Shown here: positions 4,829 through 27,635 of the stretch, piece by piece
Layout of the letters: each line of letters opens with the position of its first letter
Position numbering within the stretch: position 1 is the stretch's first letter
Source of the DNA: Candidatus Saccharimonadales bacterium
GTDB lineage: Bacteria; Patescibacteriota; Saccharimonadia; Saccharimonadales; EFPC-124
Direction: 5' to 3'
Assembly: GCA_050730875.1 (NCBI GenBank)
Contig: JBOHNX010000001.1
Coordinates: forward strand, 141,827-205,826
DNA length: 64,000 nt
The notes under the pieces: model-generated
Seen by the model: the letters and a program-made list of their open reading frames with translations, nothing else
What the model was told of the DNA's origin: nothing
Database searches by the model: none
Program-made: the position numbers and the translations under genes

Positions 4829-7525
4829 CTAGCGTAAGCGAAGTACAAAGTCGTTGTCTTGTTGCTCTTGTTGGGGCTGCGGCTGTTGCTGTTGTGGAGT
4901 GGGGTTTTGAGTCTTAGAACCGCCTCGTTTGCGTCCGCGCGAACGGGAACGCTTGCCGCTACCTGGCGTTGCTTGCTGGCCTGATTGTTGCTGTGGAGCG
5001 GCTGGTGCGGGCTGTGGGGGCTTTTGCGTTTGAGCGGCGGGCGCTGTTGTGGGTTGTTTTGATGGTGGCTGTGTCTGTGGGGCAGTAAATCGACCAGACG
5101 CGGCGGGGATGAGAGTTTGTTTAATCACCTTCTGAATTTCGGCCTCAACTTCTGCCCGAGGTCGCGAGTAATGGCGACGTGTGTTTTCGATAATCTGCGG
5201 CGAGTAGTCATTTTGCGCGGCTGGGAGGGTTAGGGTGGTTGCAGAGAACGCCGGTGCCTTCTCTCCCCTAATGACCATGCTAATGACAAAATGTCGGTTG
5301 TGCATTTGCATGAGGTCAGCGGCTTCAAACTGCGGTTCGAACTGCTTAGAAAGCAGTGGCGCATCGTCGGGGCTGACCCGGAAGGAAATGACAGTACCAA
5401 CGTTCCCGAATACGGCATCGCGTACGGTATCGTTCATCTGTGAAATATATTGGTTGGCTACAGTTAGGTTAAGGCCGTATTTACGTGCCTCACTTAAGAT
5501 AGTTGCAAACGAATCGGTCGCGAAGTTTTGGAATTCGTCCACGTACAGGTAGAACGGCTTGCGATCTTCGATGTGCGGAATATCAGAACGGCTCATGGCG
5601 GCCAGCTGGATTTTGGTTACTAGGAACGAGCCCAGCACGGCGGCGTTGTCTTCCCCTACTAACCCTTTGCTCAGGTTCACGATCAAAATTTTGCCTTCGT
5701 CCATGATTTTACGGATGTTAAAAGTGCTTTTTGGCTGGCCAATGATGTTACGGATGATTGGATTAGCAGTAAAGGCACCCACCTTGTTAAGCACTGGGGC
5801 AATGGCTTCGGCAGCGAATTTATCGTTCCAGCTCGCAAATTCTACCGTCCAGAACTGGCGCACTACGGCGTCATCGACATATGTTAGGACCTCGTTGCGG
5901 AACTTTTTATCGGTGAGCATGCGGGTGATATCGAGTAGTGTTGTGTTTGGATAATCCAAAAGCGCTAAGATTGTGTAGCGCAAGATGTATTCCAAACGTG
6001 GCCCCCAACTTTCGCCGAACATGCGTTTTAGGACACCAATAATTTCAGAACTAATATTGTTCTTCATGGCTGGATTGATGACTTCCATCGGGTTGAAGCC
6101 AATCGGGTATGCTGTGTCTGCTGGGTTAAAGTAGATCACATCCTTGGCGCGCGACTGAGGGATAAACCGCAGGTTGTTAATGGCAAAGTCGCCATGTGGA
6201 TCGATAATGGCGAAACCGTGGTTATGGAAGACGTCGCTGAGTGCAAACAGCTCCAACAGACCAGATTTACCAGTACCGGTTTGGCCAATGATATACACGT
6301 GACGGCCGCGGTCTGAACGGTACAGGCCAAATTGCTGGTTAATCCCGCGGAAGTTCGTTAGACCGAACGCACTTATTTCGGCATCGGCCTCGACACCGAT
6401 GACAACTGGCAGTTTTGCAGGTGGTTCGGCTGTTTTTGAGCTTGCCCAGACGATGTTCGGTGTCTCCACGTTGGTGTGTGGTAAGTGGAAGACACTGGCG
6501 AGCTCTTCGATATTTAAAATGTAGCCGCGATCAATAAAGAACCGCGCACGATATTGCGCCAGGCCGTCGGGCGAGAACGAAGAGTTCTTCATCTGGAAGC
6601 CATTCAGGTTCGTACTGTTGAACTGTTTGAACGTACCAACAATCGCTTGCATGCGCAGTCGGGCGGTTTGTTGGCTGTTACCCAAATACGTCAGCCGTAT
6701 TTTTACTTGGTAGCCTAATTTAATGCTCTTCTTCTCTACTTCGGTGATCCGGCCTTTTTCGCGTTCGCTAATTTCTGCCGGGCCACTGCTGCCTTGATTT
6801 TCTGGTGGTTTCCAGAGAGCTTCAAGCGCACGCAGCAAATAATAGCCAAGACCACCGCCGAGGGCAGCACTACTGCTCCCTCCCCCACTCTTCGCACGGG
6901 CTGTGTAGCGACTGGCTTTGCGGTGCCAGTCATCCGAAATTGGGCGCGCCAATACCTGAATCCACATTTCTTCGCCGGTTTCTTCGAGTTTGGCTAGTGT
7001 AGCGGTCACGGCTGCTAAGGGGTCAACCTCGAAGCTCTGGAATGTTTTAATCGGTAGCACTTCGTTATCGATTAATGAAAGTTCAGCGGTATGCACAACC
7101 TGCTGTTTGATATCGCGAGCTGCGTAATCTTCTTCTGCAACATGAATCTGCACAGTTGGATATTGCGCGTAAATTTGGCCTTCAACAAAGTTTTGCAGGT
7201 ATGTCGGCACCCATACGTAAAAGCGTATGCGTTTGTCGATGGCGGCGATTTCAAAGCTGATGTGTTCCTGCAAGCCGCCCTGCGTGGCAAGCTCACGCTT
7301 CGAGCGCAAAATACCGTGCAAACTGGCGAACATTTGCTCGGCTGCCAGTTCTTGCTTCTCGTTTGTACGAGGGATCTCGAGGATTAATAGGGTGTGGTCA
7401 AGATCACGAACCACCTTAGCTCGACGGTTGTTCCGAAGGGCTAAGTAACCAAGGACTGCGGCGATTGGCAGCCAGATGTACCACTTGCTCAGCAAGCCGA
7501 AAATCAACGAGAGCACCACGTCCAT
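4829..7525 (-). CDS. membrane-anchored VirD4/TraG/TraD-like (FtsK-HerA superfamily) ATPase with P/Q-rich C-terminal tail
   Basis: 898 aa. N-terminal TM helix. Walker A YIIGQTGTGKSG. Walker B-like FYLYVDEFQNF. Coupling-protein-like LNLTVANQYISQ. The last ~110 aa are low-complexity P/Q/G/R. Confidence 0.75.
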   Translation of the reverse strand: MDVVLSLIFGLLSKWYIWLPIAAVLGYLALRNNRRAKVVRDLDHTLLILEIPRTNEKQELAAEQMFASLHGILRSKRELATQGGLQEHISFEIAAIDKRIRFYVWVPTYLQNFVEGQIYAQYPTVQIHVAEEDYAARDIKQQVVHTAELSLIDNEVLPIKTFQSFEVDPLAAVTATLAKLEETGEEMWIQVLARPISDDWHRKASRYTARAKSGGGSSSAALGGGLGYYLLRALEALWKPPENQGSSGPAEISEREKGRITEVEKKSIKLGYQVKIRLTYLGNSQQTARLRMQAIVGTFKQFNSTNLNGFQMKNSSFSPDGLAQYRARFFIDRGYILNIEELASVFHLPHTNVETPNIVWASSKTAEPPAKLPVVIGVEADAEISAFGLTNFRGINQQFGLYRSDRGRHVYIIGQTGTGKSGLLELFALSDVFHNHGFAIIDPHGDFAINNLRFIPQSRAKDVIYFNPADTAYPIGFNPMEVINPAMKNNISSEIIGVLKRMFGESWGPRLEYILRYTILALLDYPNTTLLDITRMLTDKKFRNEVLTYVDDAVVRQFWTVEFASWNDKFAAEAIAPVLNKVGAFTANPIIRNIIGQPKSTFNIRKIMDEGKILIVNLSKGLVGEDNAAVLGSFLVTKIQLAAMSRSDIPHIEDRKPFYLYVDEFQNFATDSFATILSEARKYGLNLTVANQYISQMNDTVRDAVFGNVGTVISFRVSPDDAPLLSKQFEPQFEAADLMQMHNRHFVISMVIRGEKAPAFSATTLTLPAAQNDYSPQIIENTRRHYSRPRAEVEAEIQKVIKQTLIPAASGRFTAPQTQPPSKQPTTAPAAQTQKPPQPAPAAPQQQSGQQATPGSGKRSRSRGRKRGGSKTQNPTPQQQQPQPQQEQQDNDFVLRLR

Positions 7526-7597
7526 ATTGCTTATCCCTTATTGTCGCATGGGAACGGCACCCAGCGCAAACAACTCTTTTGCGATAAGGCGCTCGGG

Positions 7598-8647
7598 CTA
7601 TTCTTTGTCTTCTTCTGCCAGTGCATATGTCGCCTTAGCCACCCGCTTAAAGCGCTGTTTGCCCTGGAGGTTGAGCAAGATAGTCGTTTCTTTCACCTGA
7701 CGGTGCTTGAGGACTCGACGAACAATTTCATCACGGTGCAATGGACCACCCTCTTTTTTGAGGATGTCGGTAATGATGTCGGCAACGGTACCCTTCTTAA
7801 AGCCCCAATCCTTGAGTGCGTAAATACCACGGCCAATCAACACAAAACGGCTGTCTTTAATGAGCTCGTTGTGAATAGCCTGGGTTGTAACATCTTTACG
7901 GCGGAAATCAGACTCTTTAATTGACTTCGCGATGTCGCTAAAGTGCATTGGTTTACCGTTTTCTTGTAGGACAACAAAAATTTTGTCGCGGATGTTTTTA
8001 GGGTTAACGGTTGGCCATTTAGTCAGACCCCAGTGGTCCTTAAGGTTGGCAAGCTCTTTGCTAACCTGTGCGAGCGCGCGGACGTGCGACGGGTGGTCGT
8101 GGTCAAGTTTTTGGTGCAGCTGCTCGATTGTCAGCGGTTCACCTTCTTTTTTGATGGTGCCGACAATGCTATCGACGTGCTTCTTGATTTGTGGTTCGTC
8201 GTGATATTCCTTAATGCCTACCGAGTGGTGGTAGCGGTCGCTTTCCTCGACGACAGTTAGGCGCGGTGCTAGTTCGGCAACAAATGCCACGTGAGCACGG
8301 TCGCGCTCGCTTGGCGCTTTGGCGATACGGGCTGCAAGGTCAGATACTTTGGCAACACGGCCAAGGTCATGCAAGTGACGGATAAGGTGTTTTTCGAGAG
8401 TGGTAATGTGTGGCAAGCTCTCTTCCGCGGCCAGTTTTAGGCGGATCATAATTGCCTTTTCCAGCTGGCGCACACGTTCGCGAGTAATACCAAGAAGCTC
8501 ACCAATTTGCTCGAGTGTTTCTTTGCGGTCGTACAAACCAAAACGACGCGCAATGATTTCGCGCTCTCGCTCTCGTTCTACTGTAATAAGGATATCCTTA
8601 ACAGCTGACTGTAAATCCACCGTCGCCGCTTCAGCGGTATCGCTCAT
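7598..8647 (-). CDS. sigma-70 region-4-like HTH protein fused to two HARE-HTH-like domains
   Basis: The segment REIIARRFGLYDRKETLEQIGELLGITRERVRQLEKAIMIRLK resembles sigma70 region 4. Two C-terminal modules end in DSRFVLIGRGIYALKDWG and QRFKRVAKATYALAEE, like the RpoE-delta HARE-HTH. The Met at 8647 has a GGAAAGG RBS (the ORF track starts at 8689). Confidence 0.6.
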   Translation of the reverse strand: MSDTAEAATVDLQSAVKDILITVEREREREIIARRFGLYDRKETLEQIGELLGITRERVRQLEKAIMIRLKLAAEESLPHITTLEKHLIRHLHDLGRVAKVSDLAARIAKAPSERDRAHVAFVAELAPRLTVVEESDRYHHSVGIKEYHDEPQIKKHVDSIVGTIKKEGEPLTIEQLHQKLDHDHPSHVRALAQVSKELANLKDHWGLTKWPTVNPKNIRDKIFVVLQENGKPMHFSDIAKSIKESDFRRKDVTTQAIHNELIKDSRFVLIGRGIYALKDWGFKKGTVADIITDILKKEGGPLHRDEIVRRVLKHRQVKETTILLNLQGKQRFKRVAKATYALAEEDKE

Positions 8648-8841
8648 ATAACTAACCTTTCCGGGGTTATTTTTTGCCTCAATGTTCATATTACTCTAAC
8701 ACAAATTACTATTGGTGTCAAATAACGAGGGTATAAGTTAATTATAGCATCAACTCGACGTTTTAGGTAGTCTCTGATGTGACAGTTTATAACTGTGGAT
8801 AAATAGTATAAGCGTAAGAGGTATGTAGGAAAATTATATAG

Positions 8842-9301: not shown

Positions 9302-11602
9302 TTATTTGCGGGTGCGACGAGAACGAGCACTCTTGGCTGGCGCTTTGGCGAGGAGTTCTTTGCATTGCGCTAATGTGAGTTGCGCTGGTTCGATGTCTTT
9401 TGGCACTTTGACATTCTTTTTGCCATCGGTGATGTAAGGACCAAAGCGGCCGTTGAGGACTCTAATCCCCTCTTCACTGAAGTCGTGGATGGTCATTTTG
9501 GCACGTTTTTCGGCGTCTTCGGCTAAGAGCTGTTTAGCGGTTGCAAGGTCTATGGTCAGAGGGTCGTGCCCCTTAATTGAGACGTAACGTTTAGCGACGC
9601 GAACGTATGGTCCGAAACGACCAATGTTAGCCTCGATTTCTTCGTTGTTGTCGGTCAGGCCAACGACTCGGGGCAATTTAAGCAATTCGAGTGCTTGTTC
9701 GAGCGTAATTGTGTCGAGTGAGATTTCGGGCGGAATGGTAGCGAAGGTTGGTTTTTCTTCCTCCTCAGCTTCCCCTACCTGTACCATGGGGCCGTAGCGG
9801 CCAAAGCGGGCAGATACTTTACGACCGGTTTTGGGATCGGTACCAAGGGTTCGAGATTGCATAGCCTCGGCACGACTGACGCCTTCAGACTTTTCGACTG
9901 TTTTATGGAATGGGTCGTAGAATTCTTTAAGCATTTGCTGCCACGCTAGTTTGCCATCGGCGATGCCATCGAACTCTTCTTCGACTGTTGCGGTGAAGTC
10001 GTAGTCGATGATGTGTGGGAAGTGCAGTACCAAGAAGTCGGTTACGACTTTGCCGATGTCGGTGGGTACTAACTTGCCCTTATCGGTAGGAATTGGCTCC
10101 ATGGCCTGCTTGCGCTCAACTGCGCTAGCAGCTAGTGACAGGCGCACCACTTCCCGCTCGCCGCCAACGACGTCGGCTTTTTCAACATAGCCGCGATCTT
10201 GGATGGTGCTGATAGTTGGCGCGTAGGTACTTGGACGTCCAATGCCGAGTTCTTCGAGTTTGCGTACCAGGCTAGCTTCGGTGTAACGTGCGGGTGCCCT
10301 GGCGTAGGTCTGTTCGGCTTCGGCACTAACCAAATTGAGTTTGTCGCCGGTTTTTACCTCTGGCAATAAGCCTTCTTCTTTGGCTTCTTTACCTTCGGCA
10401 TAGACTTTTAAGAAACCGGGGAATTCGACAATCTCGCCCTTGGCTTCCAGCACGTCTTTGCTTTCGCTTAGGCCAATGGTGATAGTAGTTTTTTCGATCT
10501 TGGCTGGCGCCATTTGCGATGCGACGCTGCGCTTCCAAATAAGTTCGTAGAGTTTTTGTTGCTGGGCGTCATCGCCGGCTTGGCGGACGCTGGCGTTAGT
10601 GGGGCGAATAGCTTCGTGAGCTTCTTGGGCGCCGGCACTTTTGGTCGTGAATTTTCGGGTTTGCAGGTAGTTTTCGCCATACTCTTTTTTAATGAGCTCG
10701 GCCATAGCGCCAATTGCCAGGCTGCTGAGGTTAACCGAGTCGGTACGCATGTAGGTGATGTGACCATTTTCGTACAAGCGCTGTGCGAGCATCATAGTTT
10801 GCTTTGGTGAAAAACCAAGTCGGCGCGATGCTTCTTGTTGCAGTGTGCTGGTGGTAAACGGTGCGCTTGGGCTGCGCGTACCAGGCGTTTTTTCAACGTT
10901 GGCGATGCTGCATTCGCTCTTAACAAGTGCTTCGAGGAATGCCTGAGCTTCTGCCTCGCTTTCGTATTTAACCGGTGCCTCTGCTTTCAATTCCGTGCCG
11001 TCTTCAAGTGTCAGAAGTGCATTTACTTTAAAGCTGGTCTTGGCTTCGAAACCTTCAATCTCGCGTTCGCGCTCAACAATTAAACGCACTGCCACAGATT
11101 GCACACGGCCAGCGCTTAAACCTGTGCGGACTTTTTTCCAGAGGACCGGGCTCAGTTCGTACCCCACAATGCGGTCTAAAATACGACGCGCTTGTTGCGC
11201 GTCTACTAATTTAAGGTCAATGCTGCGAGGATTCTTTACCGCCGCTTCGATTGCCGGTTTGGTAATTTCATGAAAGACAATGCGCTTTGTGTTTTCGGGT
11301 TTGAGCTTCAGCGCTTCGCTTAAATGCCAAGCAATTGCTTCCCCTTCGCGGTCTTCATCGCTTGCGAGCCAGATGATATCGGCAGTTTTAGCTGCAGCGC
11401 GCAGTTCGGCAACCGTTTTCTTTTTATCTGGGCTTACTTCGTACTTTGGTTCGAAATTATTGGCGATATCAACGCTCATCCCCTTTTTAGGAAGGTCGCG
11501 GATGTGCCCAAAGCTGCTTTTAACGACAAAATCCTTGCCTAAATACTTGGCAATGGTTTTGGCTTTGGCCGGTGACTCTACAATGACTAGGTTCTTGCTC
11601 AT
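9302..11602 (-). CDS. topA: DNA topoisomerase I
   Basis: Toprim start MSKNLVIVESPAKAKTI...GHIRDLP. Also has SDEDREGEAI, a catalytic-region YITYMRTDS motif, and a C-terminal repeated RFGPY module. The likely start is 11602 (the ORF track starts at 11656). Confidence 0.95.
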   Translation of the reverse strand: MSKNLVIVESPAKAKTIAKYLGKDFVVKSSFGHIRDLPKKGMSVDIANNFEPKYEVSPDKKKTVAELRAAAKTADIIWLASDEDREGEAIAWHLSEALKLKPENTKRIVFHEITKPAIEAAVKNPRSIDLKLVDAQQARRILDRIVGYELSPVLWKKVRTGLSAGRVQSVAVRLIVEREREIEGFEAKTSFKVNALLTLEDGTELKAEAPVKYESEAEAQAFLEALVKSECSIANVEKTPGTRSPSAPFTTSTLQQEASRRLGFSPKQTMMLAQRLYENGHITYMRTDSVNLSSLAIGAMAELIKKEYGENYLQTRKFTTKSAGAQEAHEAIRPTNASVRQAGDDAQQQKLYELIWKRSVASQMAPAKIEKTTITIGLSESKDVLEAKGEIVEFPGFLKVYAEGKEAKEEGLLPEVKTGDKLNLVSAEAEQTYARAPARYTEASLVRKLEELGIGRPSTYAPTISTIQDRGYVEKADVVGGEREVVRLSLAASAVERKQAMEPIPTDKGKLVPTDIGKVVTDFLVLHFPHIIDYDFTATVEEEFDGIADGKLAWQQMLKEFYDPFHKTVEKSEGVSRAEAMQSRTLGTDPKTGRKVSARFGRYGPMVQVGEAEEEEKPTFATIPPEISLDTITLEQALELLKLPRVVGLTDNNEEIEANIGRFGPYVRVAKRYVSIKGHDPLTIDLATAKQLLAEDAEKRAKMTIHDFSEEGIRVLNGRFGPYITDGKKNVKVPKDIEPAQLTLAQCKELLAKAPAKSARSRRTRK

Positions 11603-14639: not shown

Positions 14640-15960
14640 CTCGCCTTCCCTTCTCTTCGCGGAAACTGAACTTTATTGTTGTGCCAGTGTAATCGAACCG
14701 TTCGCGCATGGCGCGTTCTAAGTAGCGTTTGTAAGACCAGTGCAAATAGCGCAGGTTGCTGCCAAATACTACAAACCACGGTGGATTTGTGTCGGTTTGC
14801 ACCATGTAACGCAGCTTGGGGTGCGTATTTTTGAGGCCAGCTGGTGGATGGCTGTGGACGCACTGTTGCAGGATTTTGTTGAGCTCGGCAGTTTTGAGTT
14901 CTTGGCGGCGGCGTTCGTCAATTTCGGATGCAAGGTCGAAAATTTTAGCGACGTTTTGTCCGGTCACGGCGCTGGTGAAAATAAGTGGCGCCCATGGCAC
15001 ATGCTGGAAGTCAAAATGCAGTTTCTTGGCGATTTCATCGCGCGAGTACGGCGTTTTGTCGTCGAGTGTGTCCCATTTGCTTATAACGATCACGATACCT
15101 TTGCCGGCTTCTTTAATAATGCCGGCGATTTTTTGGTCGAGGGCGGTGCTGAGCTCGTTCACGTCCATCAAAAGTAAACAAATGTCAGCTTGCTCGATGG
15201 CTTGCAGGCTACGCAGGACGCTGAATTTTTCGATGCCGACTTCAATTTTGCCGCTACGGCGGATACCGGCAGTGTCGAGCAGTTCTACATCGCGTTGATG
15301 GTAGCGCACACGCACGCGGTTTACATCGCGCGTGGTGCCCGCAACATCGGCCACAATTGCTTGCTGCTTGCCAGCCAAAGTGTTAAATAAGTACGATTTA
15401 CCGACGTTTGGGCGGCCGATCAGCGCAATGCGTAGAACATTGTCGTCCGGGATATCTTTTTTAGATGGAACGTCGGCTGCGATAGCTTCTAACAGTTCAT
15501 CTACGCCAGTGCTGTGCTCGGCTGAGGTACGGTAAATGTGCTTAATGCCGAGTTTCAAAAAGTCTTCGGTTGGCAGCGCGTCGGCTTTGTCGGTTTTGTT
15601 AAGCACCAGCTTAACCACCTTTTTAGATTTGAGCGCTTTTTTAGCAACGGTGCGGTCTTGGTCGGTCACCATGGTGGTGGCATCGACCACAACTAAAATA
15701 AGGTCAGCGGCGGCGCTGGCCTCTTCAATCTGTTCTTGAATGGTTGCTTCAAACTGGTCTTCGGGGTCCTTTAGACCCGCGGTGTCGACCAGCCAGAAGT
15801 TACGATCTTTAAAACCAACTTTACCAACCACCGGGTCGCGGGTAGTACCAGCTTCACGCGCAACAATCGCCTGCTGGTAGCCAACAAGGCGGTTAAACAA
15901 GCTAGATTTGCCAACGTTGGTCTGGCCAACAATAGCGACGGTCGGAAGTCGTTTACTCAT
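14614..15960 (-). CDS. der: ribosome-associated GTPase Der/EngA (two GTPase domains + KH-like)
   Basis: Two G-domains: [16 protein letters not shown]...DTAG, and [15 protein letters not shown]...DTAG...SKWD. Confidence 0.95.
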
Positions 15961-19705: not shown

Positions 19706-19874
19706 AAAATAAAGCGCAACTACAACAAAAGAGATTAGTAGCGTAATCTCACAAATGCGTCTGTACCAAAACGGCGAAATCGATCTGACCGGAGTTATAG
19801 TGCCCCCCTTACTAACGTTGTTCTAATTATGGCGTTACATAAGGATAAGCGTCAAGCTAGGTTTACAGATGTTA

Positions 19875-19948
19875 CAAATAAAAAAGCCTCCGTGCAGGAG
19901 GAAGATGTGCAGCACCCTTGGGGAGCCCGAAGGCTCGACCCAAGGGTG
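19875..19948 (-). terminator. tandem-hairpin intrinsic terminator
   Basis: Helices 19913-19921/19940-19948 and 19887-19891/19897-19901, followed on the - strand by a U6 run. It lies directly after the stop of the 19956 gene. Confidence 0.55.
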
Positions 19949-19955
19949 TCTTTTG

Positions 19956-20495
19956 TTACTGCTGCGCGGTGTTGTTCTGCTCCCATGGCGGGATCCATGC
20001 GTGCAGACGGAACCAGAACCGTGGCACGTTCTGCAGGTAGAGGGTGTACCGGTCAGGGAACTTCTCTCGAAGCTCAGGTTCCTCCTGGGTGAGGATGAGC
20101 CAGAGCTGGAAGATGATGAAGGCGATCAGCTCAAACACGACCCACAACGAGCCGGTCCAGAGTATCCACCCCAGCAGAATCAGGGCAACACCCGTGATCA
20201 TGGGGTTGCGCGAGTAGCGGTACAACCCCTCACAAACGAACTCTGTGATTGCATCCCACGGACCGAGTGACTCGCCTCGCCTGGTGAACGAAGCGATCGT
20301 CGTGATGAGCAGGAAGATCCCCATGATGAAGCTTGCCACTGTCACGATGCTGAGTACAACCCAGACAAGGCCAGTGGTGCCCCAAAGCCATCCCCACCAC
20401 CCGGCCGTCAGCATGCTTCCCCATGCAAGTAGTGGCGGTACTACACCAGCCACCATGATCGGCAATAGCAGTGCCCGTCTTTGCTTGCTGTTCAT
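19956..20495 (-). CDS. ICMT/PEMT-like membrane methyltransferase family protein
   Basis: C-terminal EGLYRYSRNPMITGVALILLGW matches the isoprenylcysteine/phospholipid methyltransferase fold. A GGAGGG RBS precedes the Met at 20495. Codons are visibly GC3-rich. Confidence 0.6.
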   Translation of the reverse strand: MNSKQRRALLLPIMVAGVVPPLLAWGSMLTAGWWGWLWGTTGLVWVVLSIVTVASFIMGIFLLITTIASFTRRGESLGPWDAITEFVCEGLYRYSRNPMITGVALILLGWILWTGSLWVVFELIAFIIFQLWLILTQEEPELREKFPDRYTLYLQNVPRFWFRLHAWIPPWEQNNTAQQ

Positions 20496-20635
20496 AGCTA
20501 CCCTCCGCAATCGAAAGTTTTGGGCATTGCTAATTATAGCAAAAGGTGTTGAAAATATCCCCCTTGCCACAAAAGAGAAGATTGTTGGCAAGATGTAACA
20601 TTAAAAGATAAATAATTGCAAGTTCGAGCGGCCTA

Positions 20636-21433
20636 CTACTTGCGCCTACCGACGATAGCGCCCATGCCTTCGTAACCGAACTCATCACCATCGGGCCGAG
20701 CCTCGTTTGACGCTGTGACGGAAAACGTTTGGATACTGCTAAGCTCGTATTTTGCTACTCGGAACACGTCTTCTTCGCGGATTGCGACAGCTGGGTAGCG
20801 TTCCCCCGCTGAGCCCCAGCCAGGATTCTGCTTTTTGTCTCTCATGTAAAGCATTGCTACCAAGCCGTTTCTAGCGATGGATTGGAAGAATGTTAAGCTT
20901 GCCTGCTCCCATTCTTGTTCATTACCTGTGAGCGACTCCGGACCGAAGCATGTGATTCCTATATCGTATGCCTTTTTTGGCAGATCGAAAATGCTTTGCT
21001 CGACGACTTCGCCAATCTTGCATGCCTTTAATGATCCGCCCGACCACTCTGGCCTGCATTTGCCGAGGTGCGTCTGGTGCGCTGCCCAGCCGCCCAGGTT
21101 ACCTTTTTTGCCCGCATTAATGACTTCTTGTGCATTTTGTACCTGTGGTTTGCCGTAATCTGACCAGTAGATCACGCTCTCGGCAGCATCGCGCATAAAA
21201 GGGGCTATTAGCGAAGGACCACGCACAACTCCGCCATTGCATGCGTCGATGCCCGTTTGTAACGACTCCAACTTAATGCCAGATTCGTCCCCCAGCTCCA
21301 AAAGAGCACCAATTGTAAAGCGCCCCAGGCAGCGATCTTCCCAGATAACTTTGCCCAGATATTGCTCGTAATATTGCGGGCCGAATTTATTCCAATTGAA
21401 TTGTTCGTTCCTTGTGCCAATAAGTGTGTGCAT
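20636..21433 (-). CDS. hypothetical protein, NNMT/PNMT/TEMT-like methyltransferase fold with degenerate SAM motif (tentative)
   Basis: Collinear by eye with NNMT-type proteins. FNWNKFGPQYYEQYL parallels FNPRDYLEKYY. IDACNGG sits where DIGSGP is expected. GITCFGPESL...LVAMLY parallels LSTLCLDAA...FLVI. Confidence 0.35.
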   Translation of the reverse strand: MHTLIGTRNEQFNWNKFGPQYYEQYLGKVIWEDRCLGRFTIGALLELGDESGIKLESLQTGIDACNGGVVRGPSLIAPFMRDAAESVIYWSDYGKPQVQNAQEVINAGKKGNLGGWAAHQTHLGKCRPEWSGGSLKACKIGEVVEQSIFDLPKKAYDIGITCFGPESLTGNEQEWEQASLTFFQSIARNGLVAMLYMRDKKQNPGWGSAGERYPAVAIREEDVFRVAKYELSSIQTFSVTASNEARPDGDEFGYEGMGAIVGRRK

Positions 21434-21483
21434 TGCTCAACAAATAGTAGGCAAGATCAAGCAAATAGCGTAAACTGTTCACC

Positions 21484-22278
21484 ATGTCGGACAGCACGAA
21501 CGGATTAATCCAGCAGTTGCAGTCACTGGGTTTGGAACCGGACGAAGTCAAAATATATCTAGAACTTTTAAGCGAGCCCAGCACGCATTTGCAGCTGAGC
21601 CGCTCGACTGGAATTAACCGCACCAAGGTGTATCGCGTTGTTGAAGAGCTCGAAAAACAGAGCTTAGTAACTCGCCGTACGGATGATAGGGGGACTTTTT
21701 TAGTGGCGTCGGACCCCGCAACGCTTGAAGTATCACTCGTCACAAAAGAGGAGGAGCTAAAACGCCAGCACGAGTTGCTCCACAGCCTAATCCCCACTCT
21801 GTCGCATTTGCAAAATAAAGATTCACGGGCATTTGTAGTGCGAACTTACGAAGGTCGTGCGGGTCTAAAGCAAATGTGCTGGCACGAACTAAAAGCTAAG
21901 GGCGAAGTTGTGGCGCTGGGGAATGGTACGATCGAACAAATTACTTCTGACGAGCGTTGGGCGCTGAAGCATCGAGAATACCAGATAGCTGCTGGTTATA
22001 AAACCCGTGACCTCGTAAACTTCGACTACACAAAAAATGAATTACCTGAACTCGCCAGCAAACAATTGCTTGCATCCGGTTTGTATAGTTATCGCATATT
22101 GCCAAAAGAAATTCTTACGTTCGATAATCAAACTATCGTCTATAACGACACCGTGGCTATTTACCACTGGAAACATGACCAAAGGGTTGGTGTCGAAATT
22201 ATCAGCCATACTTACGCCCAAATGATGCGCCAAGTGTTTGAGTACTATTGGGCGCTTGGTACAGACGGGCAGCTCTAG
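21484..22278 (+). CDS. TrmB-family transcriptional regulator
   Basis: N-terminal winged HTH: LGLEPDEVKIYLELLSEPSTHLQLSRSTGINRTKVYRVVEELEKQSLV. Confidence 0.7.
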   Translation: MSDSTNGLIQQLQSLGLEPDEVKIYLELLSEPSTHLQLSRSTGINRTKVYRVVEELEKQSLVTRRTDDRGTFLVASDPATLEVSLVTKEEELKRQHELLHSLIPTLSHLQNKDSRAFVVRTYEGRAGLKQMCWHELKAKGEVVALGNGTIEQITSDERWALKHREYQIAAGYKTRDLVNFDYTKNELPELASKQLLASGLYSYRILPKEILTFDNQTIVYNDTVAIYHWKHDQRVGVEIISHTYAQMMRQVFEYYWALGTDGQL

Positions 22279-22394
22279 TCTAGTTGCCAACCGGCAAAAA
22301 TGTTTTGAGGTCGGCGTTGAATTTTATCGAGGGCCACGGTTCGCATCCTTAGTAGCTTATAATGAAGAGTAGCTACATTAACTAGGAGAAAACC

Positions 22395-22808
22395 ATGCAA
22401 ACTCGGCTCAACCCGTACCTTAGTTTTCGCGATAACACTCGCGAGGCGATGGAATTTTATAAGACTGTGTTTGGCGGCGAGCTCACACTGAGCCCATATA
22501 AGGAATTCAACGCGTCGCAGGATCCAAGCGAGGATGACAAAATTATGCACGCTATGTTGGAAGCCAAAAACGGTATTACTTTTATGGCGGCGGACACGCC
22601 AAACGCCATGCAGTACACTCCTGGCACCAACATGAGCATGTCGCTCAGCGGCGACAACGAAGAAGAGCTCCGCGGCTATTGGGACAAGCTTTCCGAAGGT
22701 GCCACTATTACCATGCCGCTCGAAAAAGCTCCTTGGGGCGACACGTTTGGTATGCTAACCGACAAATTCGGTATTCAGTGGATGGTAGACATCGCGCCAA
22801 AAGCTTAG
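22395..22808 (+). CDS. VOC/PhnB-like (glyoxalase-fold) protein
   Basis: The N-terminus LNPYLSFRDNTREAMEFYKTVFGG and the C-terminus WGDTFGMLTDKFGIQWMV are typical of the PhnB/YjdN family. Confidence 0.7.
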   Translation: MQTRLNPYLSFRDNTREAMEFYKTVFGGELTLSPYKEFNASQDPSEDDKIMHAMLEAKNGITFMAADTPNAMQYTPGTNMSMSLSGDNEEELRGYWDKLSEGATITMPLEKAPWGDTFGMLTDKFGIQWMVDIAPKA

Positions 22809-22825
22809 GCACGTATAATTGAGAT

Positions 22826-23407
22826 ATGGCTCAGCCATACCGGCCGATGCAGCCAACCAAAACCGAGAGTCTGCCAGCTGGCAGTGAGTGGGTTTATGAG
22901 CCAAAACTTGATGGATACCGAATGCTCGCCTACACGTCGCTGCGCCGCATAGTACTGAGGACCCGATACGGCAACAACTTCACCGACCGCTATCCGCTAG
23001 TCGTCCAGCAATTGCCAGCTGCGCTGGGTGGACGCGAAGCTGTGTTAGATGGCGAAATGGTCGGATTTGACGAATCTGGCCAGCACAACATCCGGATTTT
23101 ACAGAGAAAAACCGCTCGGGTTGTGTACTTTGTCTTCGATCTTCTAGCGATTGATGACGTACCAGTAATTAATAGGAGATGGGAAGACAGGCATGGTTTG
23201 CTGGAAGAAATGTTTAAACGTCAGCCAAACGTAGATCTTTGCCCATATTTTGACGACCGCGACGCCGTGCTGCAAGCCACCGAGAAGCTAAATATGGAAG
23301 GCGTTGTCGCTAAGAAAACTCAGTCAATTTACAAACCAGGCAAACGTTCAAAAGACTGGCTGAAGTTTAAATTCCAGCCGCACCAAGGCAGAGCCTGGCG
23401 ACGGTAG
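22826..23407 (+). CDS. ATP-dependent DNA ligase adenylation (NTase) domain only, OB-fold domain absent
   Basis: Motif I YEPKLDGYR, motif III FVFDLL, motif IV EGVVAK and motif V DWLKFK are present. The ORF ends about 10 aa after motif V. Confidence 0.65.
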   Translation: MAQPYRPMQPTKTESLPAGSEWVYEPKLDGYRMLAYTSLRRIVLRTRYGNNFTDRYPLVVQQLPAALGGREAVLDGEMVGFDESGQHNIRILQRKTARVVYFVFDLLAIDDVPVINRRWEDRHGLLEEMFKRQPNVDLCPYFDDRDAVLQATEKLNMEGVVAKKTQSIYKPGKRSKDWLKFKFQPHQGRAWRR

Positions 23408-23770
23408 CTATCTTCCTAAGCGTTCCTTTAGCAAAAGCTTGACGACCTTTTCGATTAAATCGTACGGAATTGGTTTATCCAACGGGAACTGCAACGTCCC
23501 CTTCCCTTTTCGATACGGCGCGATCTCTTTTTGAAACACCTCGTCGCCAGCCGGCACCGGATACACGCTTACATGTTTTTCGTACCCCGCAAAATACGCC
23601 ACAGGCTTACCCTTTAGCTTAAACGTTGGAATGCCGTAGCTAATTACCTCCTCCGCCTCTGGTACAACACCGTGCATAACTCGTCGGATTTTTTGGAGAA
23701 TCTCCTGCGTGCTCGGCGGAAAGTTTTGTATGTATTCGTCGATGTTTTTGTATGGTTTCATTTCCACCAT
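23408..23770 (-). CDS. DUF1801 (YdhG-like) protein
   Basis: IDEYIQNFPPSTQEILQKIRRVM...ISYGIPTFKLKGKPVAYFAGYEKHVSVYP is the typical DUF1801 pattern. Confidence 0.7.
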   Translation of the reverse strand: MVEMKPYKNIDEYIQNFPPSTQEILQKIRRVMHGVVPEAEEVISYGIPTFKLKGKPVAYFAGYEKHVSVYPVPAGDEVFQKEIAPYRKGKGTLQFPLDKPIPYDLIEKVVKLLLKERLGR

Positions 23771-23794
23771 GAGTTTTATTGTAGCTAAGATGTG

Positions 23795-24274
23795 CTATCT
23801 TTTCTGTTTTTTGTCTTCGGGGTGAATGTCAACAGCTATCATTTCTACAATATGTGCGCTTCTGTCAATAAAAAAGAAGCCGCGATATGAACCTGCGTCA
23901 AATTCACTTAATTCAGCGTCGGGTGTTAGGCCGGAGGCGTATTTTTTATAGTGATTAGCCACTTTTACTTTTTTAACATCAAACGGAAGGTTGTACACAT
24001 CTTGTTCAGAAGAGCAGCGGCACATATTCTTATAGGCTTCAATCACTTTTCTTAGAGGAGCAGTCTTGGGTATTGTCTTACCTTGGCATAAATCATCTCT
24101 ATAAAATCTATGACCGATAGTAAAATTTTTCTCACCCTCGTCTTGGATGCTGTTTGACTGTGCGACGCTAGCGGGTAGCCTGACTGATGGGTCAGTCGCT
24201 TTGCGAGCGACTTCTTTGATTTCTTTTTGTAGTTTTCTACGTTCAGGCTTTGACAGTTTTGAGTAATCGGGCAT
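23795..24274 (-). CDS. putative toxin partner of Panacea antitoxin; C-terminus RelE/ParE-like
   Basis: It overlaps the upstream DUF4065 gene by 32 nt. The C-terminal GSYRGFFFIDRSAHIVEMIAVDIHPE resembles the RelE/ParE 'GDYRIIY..D....V.I..IGHR' strand pattern. Confidence 0.45.
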   Translation of the reverse strand: MPDYSKLSKPERRKLQKEIKEVARKATDPSVRLPASVAQSNSIQDEGEKNFTIGHRFYRDDLCQGKTIPKTAPLRKVIEAYKNMCRCSSEQDVYNLPFDVKKVKVANHYKKYASGLTPDAELSEFDAGSYRGFFFIDRSAHIVEMIAVDIHPEDKKQKR

Positions 24275-24713
24275 AGAAGCTCTTCATCAGATCAGGGTCA
24301 ATGGTGATACTGGTGCGCTCGTCTGTTTCGGCGTTTCCTCTAGCGGCTAGCCAGGGCTCTTCGTTGTGGGTCAAGGCTTCTAGATAGTCGGCATCAAACT
24401 TCCCATAAATTGCCCAGATATCTTCTAAGACAGCTTGTTCCTTAGCAGCTAGCTTGCCGACTTGCGGCTCTTCTGCGATGGTGTTGTAGCTATATTTTTT
24501 GTATTTGCTATAGAGAGTTCTTATGGCCGGTCCATGTATCCAAGCCTCTATAGGGTCAGTAAACAGGGGGTTGTCGTTAAATACTAAGTTCCACGCTTGG
24601 GCGTAGTAAACGAGTTTCTGTAGCTTTTTATTAGTTATCACCTTGTCTGCATCGTGAGAGGTTGCAATAAAATAATTAGCCACCCTCTGTAATTTTTCGC
24701 TTGGCTCATTCAT
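24243..24713 (-). CDS. DUF4065 / Panacea-domain (SocA/GepA-like) antitoxin
   Basis: ITNKKLQKLVYYAQAWNLVFNDNPLFTDPIEAWIHGPAIRTLYSKYKKY is the hallmark DUF4065 core. Confidence 0.75.
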   Translation of the reverse strand: MNEPSEKLQRVANYFIATSHDADKVITNKKLQKLVYYAQAWNLVFNDNPLFTDPIEAWIHGPAIRTLYSKYKKYSYNTIAEEPQVGKLAAKEQAVLEDIWAIYGKFDADYLEALTHNEEPWLAARGNAETDERTSITIDPDLMKSFYARLLKTVKA

Positions 24714-24886
24714 AGTAATTCAGTGAACTCCACCCTGCCTCCATTTGCAAGCTTAATTACTTTTATTGTACGTTTTACATACCTCTTCGTAAAGCTTATG
24801 CTACGGGCTAGTCCCGCGCTTTTCTTTTATCCTCTATAAGCTCCCGCAGTCGTATTTTGGAAACTGCTCTCGGTATTGTTCCGCTG

Positions 24887-24910
24887 TGGTGACCCATGGG
24901 GGCTCGAACC
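24887..24910 (-). other. degenerate copy of the tRNA-Glu 3' end (att-like remnant)
   Basis: tggtgaccc-atgggggctcgaacc aligns with tRNA-Glu 27561-27585 tggtgaccctatggggaatcgaacc. That is 22/25 matches in the same orientation. No 5' half of a tRNA is present. Confidence 0.6.
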
Positions 24911-24936
24911 GATTATGCGTGGTATAGTTATATTCA

Positions 24937-25260
24937 ATGAACAAAAAATCTTCGCTTATTATTCAACGCATTCTTCAGGTGATTGTCATCATCGCTTCTG
25001 TGGCGATGTTTCTAGCGGTTCTTTCGCCTTTGCTTGCATTTTTTGCCGCTTCCAGCGCAATGGGAGGTCATCCCCCGGGATATCTTAAGCCGCTGGTCTA
25101 CTTAGTGCCTATAACTCCTTATATTCTCCTAGCGGGCGCAGTAGCGTCGATTGTTTTGACTCTCATAAGACCAAAAGATGAGCTCACTACTCCTTTGCGT
25201 ATTTGGGGAGTTGTCATGTGTTTGCTAGCCTTTGGGCTGTTTACTTACTTTAAGTTCTAG
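24937..25260 (+). CDS. small membrane protein (3 predicted TM helices)
   Basis: 107-aa hydrophobic ORF. It is followed by the bidirectional terminator at 25270-25301. Confidence 0.5.
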   Translation: MNKKSSLIIQRILQVIVIIASVAMFLAVLSPLLAFFAASSAMGGHPPGYLKPLVYLVPITPYILLAGAVASIVLTLIRPKDELTTPLRIWGVVMCLLAFGLFTYFKF

Positions 25261-25269
25261 TTGAAGGAT

Positions 25270-25301
25270 CCCCAGGGAGCACATGCTCCCTGGGGATTTT
25301 T
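25270..25301. terminator. bidirectional intrinsic terminator
   Basis: Perfect 11-bp stem 25270-25280/25285-25295, with a T5 run on + and an A/T-rich flank on -. It lies between convergent genes. Confidence 0.7.
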
Positions 25302-25321
25302 GGGTTCTTCGGATCAATCAA

Positions 25322-27382
25322 TTACTGAACGGTCAGCAACCAGTCGGCCGCATGTTTTGTCCAAATGGACGCATACTGATAATGCGCACAGTTAGATCCA
25401 TCCGACAAGAAACATTGCTCGAAACCATCCCACGACGTAAAGTTACATATCGGGTCATTGGCTAGACAGTAGCTGGCTGTTTTTCCTGTCAGAGAGGGAG
25501 GCAGTTCGCGTGGGGGCAACCCCCCTGGCCCGGCCGGAGACGACCAAATACCATACAAGCTGGTATCGTATGTTCCTCGATTGAACGTGGATTGCGGGTT
25601 GAATCGAGGATCACCGAAAAGGACTATTCCGTGTATCTGAGCCTGGATCTCTGTAGGGAGCGCAGACGCTACATCTGCAGCGACGTGAGCTCCCTGACTG
25701 TAGCCGGCCAGAATCACATCCGTGGCTGGGCAGTCTTTGTGCAACTGCGTCAGATAACCCGTCAAGGCGTCCACGCCCGCTTTCACGCTTTCGCTGTAAT
25801 CAGCGGGGTAGCTCCTCTGGTAGGGATCAACTGGAACCGCCGGGTATGCCACTGCAGCAACCTGAAGCCCGCTGAGGCCGCCGGCAACCAGCTGATTCTT
25901 GAGATCCTGGATGGTTCTGCCGACTCCCTCGTATTCGAACGGGTTTTCCCCCGAACCACGCACTCCAACGAGCTGAGTGGTCGGGCATGTTACGGGGGTT
26001 GGCCCTATGCCCAGGGTAGCGCTTCTTGGGTAATCCAACCCCAGTCGTTGCAGCGGCACTGCGTACAAACTCTGAGTGCGACCCTGACAGCTAGAAGTGT
26101 CGGCGTTGGTGCAATATCCGATCGACAAGTACAACTTGTCCTGGGACAGAGCCCAGCTTGCGCCTCGGGCAAACCTCGTCGTCTGTTGAAAGTCGAACCA
26201 GTTCGTGTCGAACTGAGCAACCCTGCTCAAGTCTGGCCGTTGCAGTGTGAATTGCCAGCCACGCAGGATCTTGCTACCGCTCCTCCAGTTGTACTGCCTT
26301 GTGAGCAAGATGTTTCCATTTCCATCCGCTCTCACGATTGCCGGCAGAAAACTATTGGAGGTAGAGCCCAGATCGGTGAAGGTCCGATAATCCTCAGTAG
26401 TGCTCAGCGTCGAGCTGCGAACAGTGTAGCTGCTGTCGTTTGGCGTGTAAGAGAGAAGGACCGGTTGACCCGCGTCGTTGTACGCTACAACTGTTGCTCC
26501 ACCATTCGTGGTTGCAGTGGTGCTCGCGATGTTCCAGCACGACGACCAACTGAACTTGAAGATCCTGCCTGTTGTGGGAGTGTACTCTTGGAAGTTGATC
26601 GTTTTGTATCGGTTGACGCATGTGCCGCTAGAGCTCTGGAAGTCTTCCTGGAACACACGCCCATCGATATTCGCTGCACGAATCCAACCGCCCGAGCCCG
26701 CCTGTGAGAGATTGGTTGGCATGTAGTCGGATCCGTCATGCTTGATGTACCGAATGGTGCGGAGTGTGTTCTGCAGAATGACACCATACTGGTAAGCGCT
26801 GAACCATGTAACAGTTGCCTTGCCGAGGTTTTTCTCGAACAAAATACGACCAGTTGATGGGTCGATTTTGTTGAGGAAGTTGCCCGTCTGGCATTTGTTG
26901 TCGACAGAAACTGCGTACAGGTATCCGTCGACACCAACTGTCATCGATTTGAGTGCGCGGTCGACAAGCCCGTATGTGCTGCAGTACGATCGAAGGCTAA
27001 TCTCCCACGTCAACGTGGTGCCACGATATGCAACTACGGTATAACGCCCGCTCCTGTTGTCGGTATAACCGAATACCGTCCCATCTTTTGCGACGGCGCC
27101 CTGCGACCAGCACACGTATGTGTACTTTCCGGTGACCTGGGGCACAGTTGCGCTGATCGTGCCGTCTGGTGCGAAAGTCTTGAAGGCGGTGGAACCGGAG
27201 CTGGCGCAGTTGGCAGCGACAACGCTACCGTTTGCAGTCGACATGACGTAGTCGCTCTGCAAGTCGCTGGTGTCCTGTGGCCACGCGGGACTTACGGCTT
27301 CCGCAGGACTAATAGCCCAAAACGATTGCAGGAGCATGACGAGCACCGGGATGAGCAATTTGCGGCTTAACCCTTGCATCAC
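25322..27382 (-). CDS. secreted two-domain protein: ~430-aa unknown (beta-rich) N-domain + C-terminal cutinase-family serine esterase
   Basis: Signal peptide MMQGLSRKLLIPVLVMLLQSFWAISPAEA. The cutinase domain spans aa ~466-675 (LVGVRGSGE). The nucleophile elbow is GYSQGA (Ser codon at 25697-25699). Also has NDPIC and CAHYQY. A GGAAGGTGA RBS is present. GC-richer than its neighbours. Confidence 0.75.
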   Translation of the reverse strand: MMQGLSRKLLIPVLVMLLQSFWAISPAEAVSPAWPQDTSDLQSDYVMSTANGSVVAANCASSGSTAFKTFAPDGTISATVPQVTGKYTYVCWSQGAVAKDGTVFGYTDNRSGRYTVVAYRGTTLTWEISLRSYCSTYGLVDRALKSMTVGVDGYLYAVSVDNKCQTGNFLNKIDPSTGRILFEKNLGKATVTWFSAYQYGVILQNTLRTIRYIKHDGSDYMPTNLSQAGSGGWIRAANIDGRVFQEDFQSSSGTCVNRYKTINFQEYTPTTGRIFKFSWSSCWNIASTTATTNGGATVVAYNDAGQPVLLSYTPNDSSYTVRSSTLSTTEDYRTFTDLGSTSNSFLPAIVRADGNGNILLTRQYNWRSGSKILRGWQFTLQRPDLSRVAQFDTNWFDFQQTTRFARGASWALSQDKLYLSIGYCTNADTSSCQGRTQSLYAVPLQRLGLDYPRSATLGIGPTPVTCPTTQLVGVRGSGENPFEYEGVGRTIQDLKNQLVAGGLSGLQVAAVAYPAVPVDPYQRSYPADYSESVKAGVDALTGYLTQLHKDCPATDVILAGYSQGAHVAADVASALPTEIQAQIHGIVLFGDPRFNPQSTFNRGTYDTSLYGIWSSPAGPGGLPPRELPPSLTGKTASYCLANDPICNFTSWDGFEQCFLSDGSNCAHYQYASIWTKHAADWLLTVQ

Positions 27383-27560
27383 TTCACCTTCCGAAGGCTA
27401 GGGGGATGTTAAAGAACGAGCTGTTGTTACAGCCCCTTGCAGATCCGAAGAACCGAGTTAATTATACGTAACTTTGGGTAATGAGCAACAGAGATTAATT
27501 GATCACGTGGCTATTTGCTAGAAATCAAAACCACCCACGAGGGGTGGCTTGGATGTTCTA

Positions 27561-27635
27561 TGGTGACCCTATGGGGAATCGAACCCCAGTTACCAGGATG
27601 AGAACCTGGCGTCCTAACCGCTAGACGATAGGGCC
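27561..27635 (-). tRNA. tRNA-Glu (anticodon CUC), CCA encoded
   Basis: 75-nt cloverleaf GGCCCUA/UAGGGUC. Anticodon loop UUCUCAU. T-arm UGGGGUUCGAUUCCCCA. A terminator hairpin lies at about 27528-27545 on the - strand. Confidence 0.92.

Follow-up and report, generated by a model that had tools for sequence, protein, structure and literature searches.

The window considered here, a 64,000-nucleotide stretch of a Candidatus Saccharimonadales genome (GenBank assembly GCA_050730875.1, contig JBOHNX010000001.1, positions 141,827 to 205,826 of the forward strand), encodes a tRNA-Glu(CTC) whose 3' end is found a second time, in degenerate form, 2,651 nt away on the 3' side of the gene. With moderate confidence, we read this 24-nt copy as a decayed scar of the attR type (att, attachment site) that bounds a 2.65-kb cassette, which lacks an integrase gene and resembles a cis-mobilizable element (CIME). 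Comparison with related genomes shows the 3' end of tRNA-Glu(CTC) to be a recurrent recombination point in Saccharimonadales.

The tRNA-Glu Gene and Its Partial Copy

The tRNA gene (27561–27635, minus strand, CCA encoded) is recognized by ARAGORN and by the Rfam tRNA model (61.7 bits). Its last 25 nt (27561–27585) constitute the repeated segment, and the gene itself forms the proximal, attL-side boundary of the bracketed DNA. On the plus strand, the copy at 24887–24910 reads TGGTGACCC-ATGGGGGCTCGAACC as compared to TGGTGACCCTATGGGGAATCGAACC in the tRNA, which corresponds to 22 matches over 25 aligned positions with one 1-nt gap. The copy lies on the minus strand, in the orientation of the tRNA, begins precisely at the encoded CCA end and, when read in the tRNA sense (GGTTCGAGCCCCCATGGGTCACCA), comprises the T-loop, the 3' strands of the T-stem and of the acceptor stem, and ACCA; relative to the tRNA, two T-loop bases are changed and one acceptor-strand base is deleted. 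The T-stem strand CCCCA, which is common to the copy and to the window's own tRNA, is lineage-specific and differs from most relatives; the copy is therefore derived from this tRNA-Glu lineage.

This match, together with its attL/attR-like geometry, had been pointed out in an earlier note on this DNA, and it is confirmed by local alignment, by a chance test, and by a profile search, the geometry being genuine and far outside what chance would produce. Random sequence totalling 20 Mb (first-order Markov, window composition) contained no position that reached 20/25 or more with at most one gap and only ten that reached 19/25; the null expectation for the copy is far below 1e-3 per window. On both strands of the real window, values above 19/25 occur only at the tRNA itself and at 24887, and an nhmmer profile built from 12 Saccharibacteria tRNA-Glu 3' ends likewise matched only the tRNA and 24887–24910. 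A longer tRNA remnant at 24887–24910 was not detected by Rfam (E ≤ 5). An exact look-up of the regulator protein led to a contig of an independent Logan assembly in which the identical arrangement is present, and no other contig with the locus was found. A candidate second fragment at 19905–19945 (CACCCTTGGGGAGCC...) was rejected, as it is a perfect terminator-type hairpin without a CCA end and gave no profile match.

The Bracketed Cassette and Its Cargo

Between the tRNA and the copy lie only two genes, coding for a secreted cutinase fusion protein and for a 107-aa membrane protein, just as the earlier note had listed them from the letters (ORF list, Pfam; ORF, open reading frame). In the tRNA sense, the order is CCA end, leader, promoter-like sequence with 5' untranslated region (UTR), cutinase gene, inverted repeat, convergent membrane-protein gene, a spacer of about 26 nt, and the copy. 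The leader, which extends over about 65 nt from the CCA end to the onset of the homology shared with other cassettes, contains a terminator-like hairpin (AAGCCACCCCTCGTGGGTGGTTT plus T-run; 27528–27550, minus strand; terminator scan); no counterpart of this stretch was found in L070, the locus with the closest cutinase homolog (loci of relatives are numbered with the prefix L). It is followed by the promoter-like TTGCTC...TATAAT and the cutinase 5' UTR (27383–27490, minus strand), with which the left end of the segment common with L070 begins, and by the cutinase fusion gene (25322–27382, minus strand, 685/686 aa, Pfam Cutinase). A perfect 14-bp inverted repeat (25268–25297; repeat search) between the convergent cargo genes is probably a shared bidirectional terminator, and the gene for the multi-pass membrane protein (24937–25260, plus strand; ORF list) completes the cassette. 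The window (27383–27490) and L070 (691–799) show nucleotide-level conservation of the cutinase 5' UTR (CGGTTCYTCGGA...GGGC...CACATC) even though the proteins are only 51 % identical; this UTR has no Rfam match and may be a regulatory leader.

The cutinase fusion protein carries a Sec-type signal peptide (MMQGLSRKLLIPVLVMLLQSFWAISPAEA, read from the sequence), an all-beta, propeller-like N-terminal half, and a C-terminal cutinase/CE5 esterase domain (aa 466–683; Pfam PF01083 Cutinase, E = 1.7e-26, 93.6 bits as compared to a cutoff of 25.9). Its nucleophile elbow GYSQG (Y560, S561, Q562, G563) is invariant in 8/8 cutinase-fusion homologs. The cutinase domain furthermore matches PHROG 102 'endolysin' (E = 3e-15), and matches of the fusion to sequences in the PDB include cutinases and Rv3802c of Mycobacterium tuberculosis. 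An AlphaFold2 model is of moderate confidence overall, with a mean pLDDT (predicted local distance difference test) of 64 and values of 70–90 over most of residues 100–330 and 530–600, and its Foldseek matches comprise cutinases (TM-scores 0.6–0.7), M. tuberculosis Rv3802c, beta-propeller lectins, and oligopeptidases. The fusion resembles mycobacterial Culp and phage LysB esterases, from which we infer, as a plausible role of the cargo, that of a LysB/Culp-like esterase, possibly directed against mycolic-acid-containing actinobacterial hosts.

A search of 5.8 billion proteins returned only seven full-length homologs of the fusion (44–51 % identity). Behind each cutinase homolog lies a small gene read from the opposite strand; in L065–L072, these partners of 90–120 aa sit in the same position, and three of them are detectably similar to the 107-aa protein (L065, L069, and L072, 30–37 % identity by tblastn); the two cargo genes therefore represent a conserved module. 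In L070, where the cutinase homolog is 51 % identical and the orthologous kinase and regulator of the conserved backbone are 73 % and 70 % identical, respectively, the homology to the window sets in at the cutinase promoter, some 110 nt before the start codon, and runs on until about 25 nt ahead of the start codon of the membrane-protein gene. It hence ends within about 10 nt of the copy at 24887–24910, i. e., it abuts the copy. In L068, a homologous cassette is situated between a truncated tRNA-Glu-like end plus leader (7686–7790) and a full copy (10534–10612) in direct orientation. We infer that the cassette of the window is the unit that integrated.

A Hotspot Downstream of tRNA-Glu in Saccharimonadales

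Relatives of the locus were collected by means of the kinase gene (one in GTDB at 59 % identity, 61 loci in JGI data at up to 64 %, and a best match of 67 % in the search of 5.8 billion proteins). Some 30 Saccharimonadales loci have the same gene order, namely DUF3048, kinase, regulator, small variable gene(s), and tRNA-Glu(CTC), and similarity ends completely at the tRNA; for the genes from window positions 1–27500, the first set of loci yielded no homologs in the DNA downstream of the tRNA. At least ten other loci contain, downstream of their orthologous tRNA and in its orientation, copies of the segment from the T-loop to CCA, for example, at distances of 245 nt in L018 (ATTCTCCATAGGGTCACCA), 170 nt and 2,094 nt in L022, 177 nt in L026, 726 nt in L041, 853 nt in L001, 1,668 nt in L171 (the closest relative by kinase identity), 5,748 nt in L034, 7,747 nt in L046 (15/15 exact), and 7,796 nt in L021. 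At a score of at least 12 and with true tRNAs excluded, six matches were counted in 222 kb of downstream same-strand sequence as compared to two in the other three compartments together (810 kb), and one of the latter two is an inverted copy directly after the L032 tRNA. All fragments span the region from the T-arm to CCA, a pattern that is expected of att identity blocks and not of the random decay of whole genes.

The islets found at this position in other genomes carry, among others, a YcaO protein with nitroreductase, TehB, an OLD/DUF4435-type ATPase, an esterase, a P-type ATPase, a low-molecular-weight phosphatase, a cupin, and an ABC-F protein. In L012, L022, and L068, the repeats occur in series, as opposed to the one repeat of the window. 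The inverted tRNA-Glu 3'-end copy of L032 (TGGTGACGCCTACGGCGAGTCGAACCTGGA, about 15040–15136) is located 30–60 nt after the tRNA-Glu gene (15137–15211, minus strand), and both in L032 and in L050 the tRNA is inverted relative to the kinase; in L032, the inverted copy together with the inverted tRNA might be the record of a site-specific inversion. Another observation concerns a second, more degenerate tRNA-like fragment (CCTCTGTTATT..GAGTTCGATTC) that follows about 85–100 nt after the tRNA-Glu CCA end, past a terminator hairpin. It was seen in L001 (12600–12640) and L012 (13187–13204) and also in L033, L034, L038, and L046, at occupied and empty sites alike.

In the window, the variable region measures 7.85 kb (19706–27560) and extends from tRNA-Glu to a conserved backbone of PAS-kinase, regulator, and RluB genes. 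The backbone is orthologous and collinear in L172 (GCA_964405095.1; window 19516–16417, 57–78 % amino acid identity), where the interval from tRNA-Glu to the PAS-kinase gene is filled with 5.75 kb of other genes (a 537-aa ORF, an M20 peptidase, a NUDIX gene, and an ABC transporter) in place of the 7.85 kb of the window. Given this wholesale replacement, the 2.65-kb islet is the tRNA-proximal part of a larger replaceable region. Taken together, these comparisons show that the interval after tRNA-Glu behaves as a hotspot for the accretion and replacement of small accessory cassettes in Saccharimonadales.

An Occupied and an Empty Site in Two Near-Identical Contigs

Presence and absence of an islet with a precise empty site at the orthologous tRNA is seen for L034 as compared to L038 and L036. 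L034 and L038 are 98.8 % identical and differ by a 5.7-kb insert (L034 12174–17921 vs. L038 12173/12174). The edges of the insert in L034 are the tRNA end ...CCCGGTAAGGTCACCA (...GGTCACCA) and the degenerate copy ...GGTCCCCGCAGGCTCACCA (...GGCTCACCA), and one and the same flank, TGACATTATCCAGCTC... (TGACATTATCC...), comes after the copy in L034 and directly after the tRNA in L038 and L036. The cargo of the insert consists of a NUDIX protein, small ORFs, and a paralog of class I aminoacyl-tRNA synthetases; no recombinase gene was found in it. L046, at 87–89 % identity, contains a different islet with Ham1 and polyprenyl synthase genes.

In addition, the distal repeat of several relatives is embedded in a conserved element of about 80 nt, namely in L034 (17844–17923), L012 (16766–16846), L013 (13504–13582), L011 (16600–16681), L004 (17901–17979), and twice in L068 (3827–3906 and 10534–10612). 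The last 30 nt or so of this element mimic the 3' half of tRNA-Glu (GCGG-AAGGTCC-CCGC, then AGGCTC-A-CCA), and its opposite strand holds the start of an ORF of 27–40 aa (MVSLRGPSAKHFWDGLERLDExL...), the first 13 codons of which overlap. Codons 1–13 are near-fixed at the nucleotide level and the variation in codons 14–21 is mostly synonymous; this codon pattern suggests a real peptide whose start overlaps a DNA site. A 40-nt core is 91–100 % identical between genomes whose kinases are only 44–60 % identical to that of the window. The element is absent from the window and had no match in a pattern scan of IMG/VR, and neither element nor peptide gave a tblastn match in phage and plasmid collections.

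Search for a Recombinase

The earlier note had remarked on the absence of an integrase, and this holds for every ORF scanned with Pfam (window 81–31180 and nine further ORFs of 290–400 aa), among which no integrase or recombinase was found in the islet or its neighbours; an integrase hidden Markov model (HMM) found no match among all ORFs of at least 100 aa either, and Pfam revealed no transfer genes in the islet. At the orthologous site of about 30 loci, neither an integrative and conjugative element (ICE), nor an integrative and mobilizable element (IME), nor an integrase was found. Integrase-less cassettes therefore look like the norm here, which qualifies the interpretation of the islet as a decayed island put forward in the earlier note: the decayed att scar remains the best explanation of the copy, while loss of an integrase is only one option.

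Three IMG/VR elements (L087, L122, and L139; 9–11 kb) are delimited by 48-nt terminal direct repeats that correspond to tRNA-Glu(CTC) from the anticodon loop to CCA. The att-adjacent ORF of L122 is a tyrosine integrase confirmed by Pfam, and L087 and L139 have an ORF of about 360 aa in the same att-adjacent position and of similar size (the Pfam scan covered L122 only). Integrases elsewhere thus do use tRNA-Glu(CTC) as a target. All three elements are nevertheless unrelated to the loci of the Saccharibacteria, with which a single DUF2726 is the sole match.

Weighing the Evidence

Several findings weigh against the interpretation of the 24-mer as an att scar. A recombinase was not found in any islet of the about 30 orthologous loci (Pfam scans and HMM), and the profile detected one fragment only in the 7.85-kb variable region of the window, not a second one. 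The copy differs from the tRNA at 3/25 positions; if it is an att site, it is therefore old and probably inactive. In L070, the cassette precedes the tRNA: it occupies the 5' side of the latter, in the interval that begins with the regulator gene, and is accompanied there by a 398-aa nucleoside-deoxyribosyltransferase/NUDIX-like gene. No tRNA-like fragment was detected after the L070 regulator gene; this arrangement could be due to the reciprocal loss of two tRNA copies or to an independent insertion. In L065, L066, and L072, moreover, the cassette abuts the 3' end of a tRNA-Met(CAT) gene (10491–10567, 3261–3337, and 3135–3211, respectively) in the orientation opposite to that of the window. 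A tRNA-Met repeat on the far side of the cassette was not detected in these three loci, and no tRNA-Met repeats around the cassette were found at a score of at least 12 in L065, L066, and L069.

Neither an empty site nor a presence/absence polymorphism was found for the locus of the window, because the kinase of the closest relative is only 67 % identical. The empty site envisaged in the earlier note, with tRNA-Glu directly followed by the SocA/Panacea (DUF4065) gene pair, was in fact a wrong expectation, as this pair itself lies within the 7.85-kb variable region. Composition likewise gives no help: the cutinase gene, described previously as GC-richer, has a GC content of 55.1 % as compared to a mean of 51.0 ± 3.7 % for the genes of the window (z = +1.1; z = +1.2 for GC at third codon positions), and the islet as a whole (52.8 % vs. 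50.8 % for the window) is not atypical. The values being in the normal range of the window, GC content was dropped as evidence for transfer of the cutinase gene; it is the adjacent SocA pair that is the outlier.

Among the other explanations, the view that 24887–24910 is the remnant of a second, complete tRNA-Glu gene, i. e., a pseudogene relic instead of an att core, is unlikely in our estimation. According to this scenario, a local duplication or an element carrying a whole tRNA gene would have supplied two genes, of which the lineage of the window lost the distal one down to its last 24 nt and the lineage of L070 the proximal one. It would account for L070, whose cassette has the same orientation to the kinase and regulator genes and whose sole tRNA-Glu is distal, approximately at the position of the copy in the window, and weak extra similarity may extend a few nucleotides 5' of the copy (TAATCGGTTCGA vs. 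TAACTGGGGTTCGA, by eye). However, two tRNA-Glu genes were seen in none of the about 35 loci examined, and the fragments in ten loci all reach from the T-arm to CCA, which random gene decay would not produce. The position of the tRNA body in the window is furthermore taken by a conserved promoter region of the membrane-protein gene that is common with L070, and Rfam finds no partial tRNA there.

Also improbable, by our assessment, is a hotspot maintained by homologous or illegitimate recombination without any site-specific recombinase, in which the cassette was never a discrete integrating unit. Turnover would then proceed by natural transformation, with the tRNA and the backbone as homology anchors and the fragments as by-products of imprecise joins. 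The absence of a recombinase gene from every islet agrees with this, as does DprA, whose gene lies in the window and would fit with competence; the conserved backbone genes that flank the variable region on either side offer possible homology arms, and the 40-nt core with its 91–100 % identity across divergent genomes would be long enough for RecA-dependent exchange. On the other hand, the junction in L034/L038 falls precisely at the CCA end, where the partners share TCACCA and scattered matches, too little for RecA, and copies that keep to one strand and are anchored at the end, as seen in many loci, are the mark of a fixed site of crossover. The inverted copy beside the inverted tRNA in L032 is also what site-specific inversion predicts. 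Chance or faulty assembly as the source of the match, finally, hardly deserves any credence. The simple local score of the copy (18) is barely above the next best in the window (16 and 15), but an equal, end-anchored full-length match did not occur in the 20 Mb of random sequence, the independent Logan assembly has the same arrangement, and equivalent fragments recur in relatives; the Logan contig and the 20-Mb test effectively refute this possibility.

A Possible Course of Events

If the copy is indeed an att scar, as the simplest reading has it, the cassette would have entered by site-specific recombination at the 3' end of tRNA-Glu, presumably with a crossover in or near the T-loop. Such recombination would rebuild a functional tRNA on one side and leave a partial copy at the far edge, and upon repetition of the process, modules would accrete or replace each other. 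In that case, the cutinase cassette would be the module that arrived last, and the 24-mer would be its scar of the attR type, decayed by three changes; being tRNA-proximal, the cassette is therefore probably the most recently added module of the 7.85-kb variable region. Because no islet encodes a recombinase, the enzyme would either act in trans, encoded at another place in the genome or on a transient element, or have been lost quickly. With the recombinase outside the cassette, the islet is therefore best described as CIME-like, that is, as cis-mobilizable or fixed.

A more far-reaching version of this scenario holds that the region after tRNA-Glu(CTC) in soil Saccharimonadales is a dedicated, integron-like gene-capture platform built on a tRNA mimic. 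A recombinase in trans would insert, excise, and shuffle small self-contained cassettes at the 3' end of the tRNA, with the conserved element of about 80 nt as the site borne by the cassettes and with the cassette of the window as a decayed member. We regard this version as doubtful.

Neighbouring Genes in the Window

The remainder of the variable region, from the copy to the PAS-kinase/regulator/RluB backbone (19706–24886; Pfam), lies outside the 2.65-kb cassette and belongs to the same hotspot. It comprises the SocA/Panacea gene with its 159-aa partner, DUF1801, a ligase fragment, a glyoxalase, TrmB, a 265-aa ORF, and PEMT, for which no homologs were found downstream of tRNA-Glu in relatives. 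In the SocA/Panacea (DUF4065) pair (23795–24713), a 156-aa antitoxin-like gene overlaps the gene for the 159-aa partner, which has no Pfam match. With GC contents of 45 % and 41 % (z = -1.6 and -2.7), the pair is the most AT-rich in the window and a true compositional outlier, and the best SocA homolog (71 %) occurs in an unrelated context beside ClpP and trigger factor. Probably, the pair is a separately acquired toxin-antitoxin module that is itself mobile.

The ligase fragment (22826–23407) is a 193-aa ORF that consists of the adenylation domain of an ATP-dependent DNA/RNA ligase alone; it might be a nucleotidyltransferase that acts on its own or what is left of a truncated ligase. Some 20 kb away from the islet, the gene for a TrwB/VirD4-type coupling protein of 898 aa adjoins that for a 363-aa sigma70_r4/HARE-HTH protein (4829–8689); these are conjugation or type IV secretion-like components.

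Relevance for Saccharibacteria

Saccharibacteria and other members of the candidate phyla radiation have tiny genomes and depend on hosts, and their acquisition of accessory genes is poorly understood; we found no literature on tRNA-linked islands in the Saccharibacteria phylum. The present findings suggest that small cassettes without a recombinase of their own, which carry genes for host interaction, defence, and nucleotide housekeeping, dock repeatedly at one tRNA-Glu gene. The recombination system, if identified, would give genetic tools a natural place to integrate in a phylum in which manipulation is difficult, and the gene-capture platform, if real, would amount to an integron-like system for accessory genes in ultra-small epibiotic bacteria.

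Comparison with Known Systems

The arrangement recalls genomic islands with attL/attR direct repeats that target tRNA or tmRNA genes, with which it shares an intact tRNA at one edge, a partial same-strand copy at the other that starts in the T-loop and reaches the 3' end, accessory cargo, and a break of synteny at the tRNA in relatives. A T-loop sublocation of the tyrosine or serine integrases at such islands was reportedly described by Williams in 2002. The islet of the window differs from them in having no integrase gene, only two genes (2.65 kb), a repeat of 22/25, and no compositional signature.

Of the categories described so far, the closest are CIMEs and the tandem ssrA islands of Dehalococcoides. 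CIMEs have been defined for the ICE and IME sites of Streptococcus (PMC5704250). Like these, the islet is att-flanked cargo without integration or transfer genes and lies in series with other variable DNA at one tRNA. However, CIMEs are recognized beside ICEs or IMEs or as their derivatives, whereas no parent element was seen here in any locus; in addition, the att copy is degenerate here and mobilization is putative.

A close parallel is offered by Dehalococcoides, in which tandem islands are delimited by 20-bp repeats of the ssrA 3' end with a crossover in the T-loop; 15 islands, about half, have no integration modules and were interpreted as CIMEs (PMC3146451). Common to both cases are a small genome, islands after a single small-RNA gene, and 3'-end copies of about 20 bp, and in Dehalococcoides an ORF of the complementary strand overlaps the repeat, much as the 27–40-aa ORF lies over the tRNA-like motif in relatives of the window. 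In contrast, the target in Dehalococcoides is tmRNA and not tRNA-Glu, many of its islands encode a serine recombinase (DsiB) while none is encoded here, and the window has a single detectable repeat instead of a series.

By analogy only, integron arrays may be compared with the relatives L012, L022, and L068, in which promoter-bearing cassettes of one to three genes are arranged in series with a conserved repeat between them that resembles a recombination site. There is no IntI-type integrase here, the repeat imitates a tRNA 3' end and not an attC hairpin, and the cassettes have their own promoters and terminators. Overall, the islet may thus be placed among the integrase-less, CIME-like tRNA islets of a kind already known, possibly with a lineage-wide cassette system at tRNA-Glu behind it.

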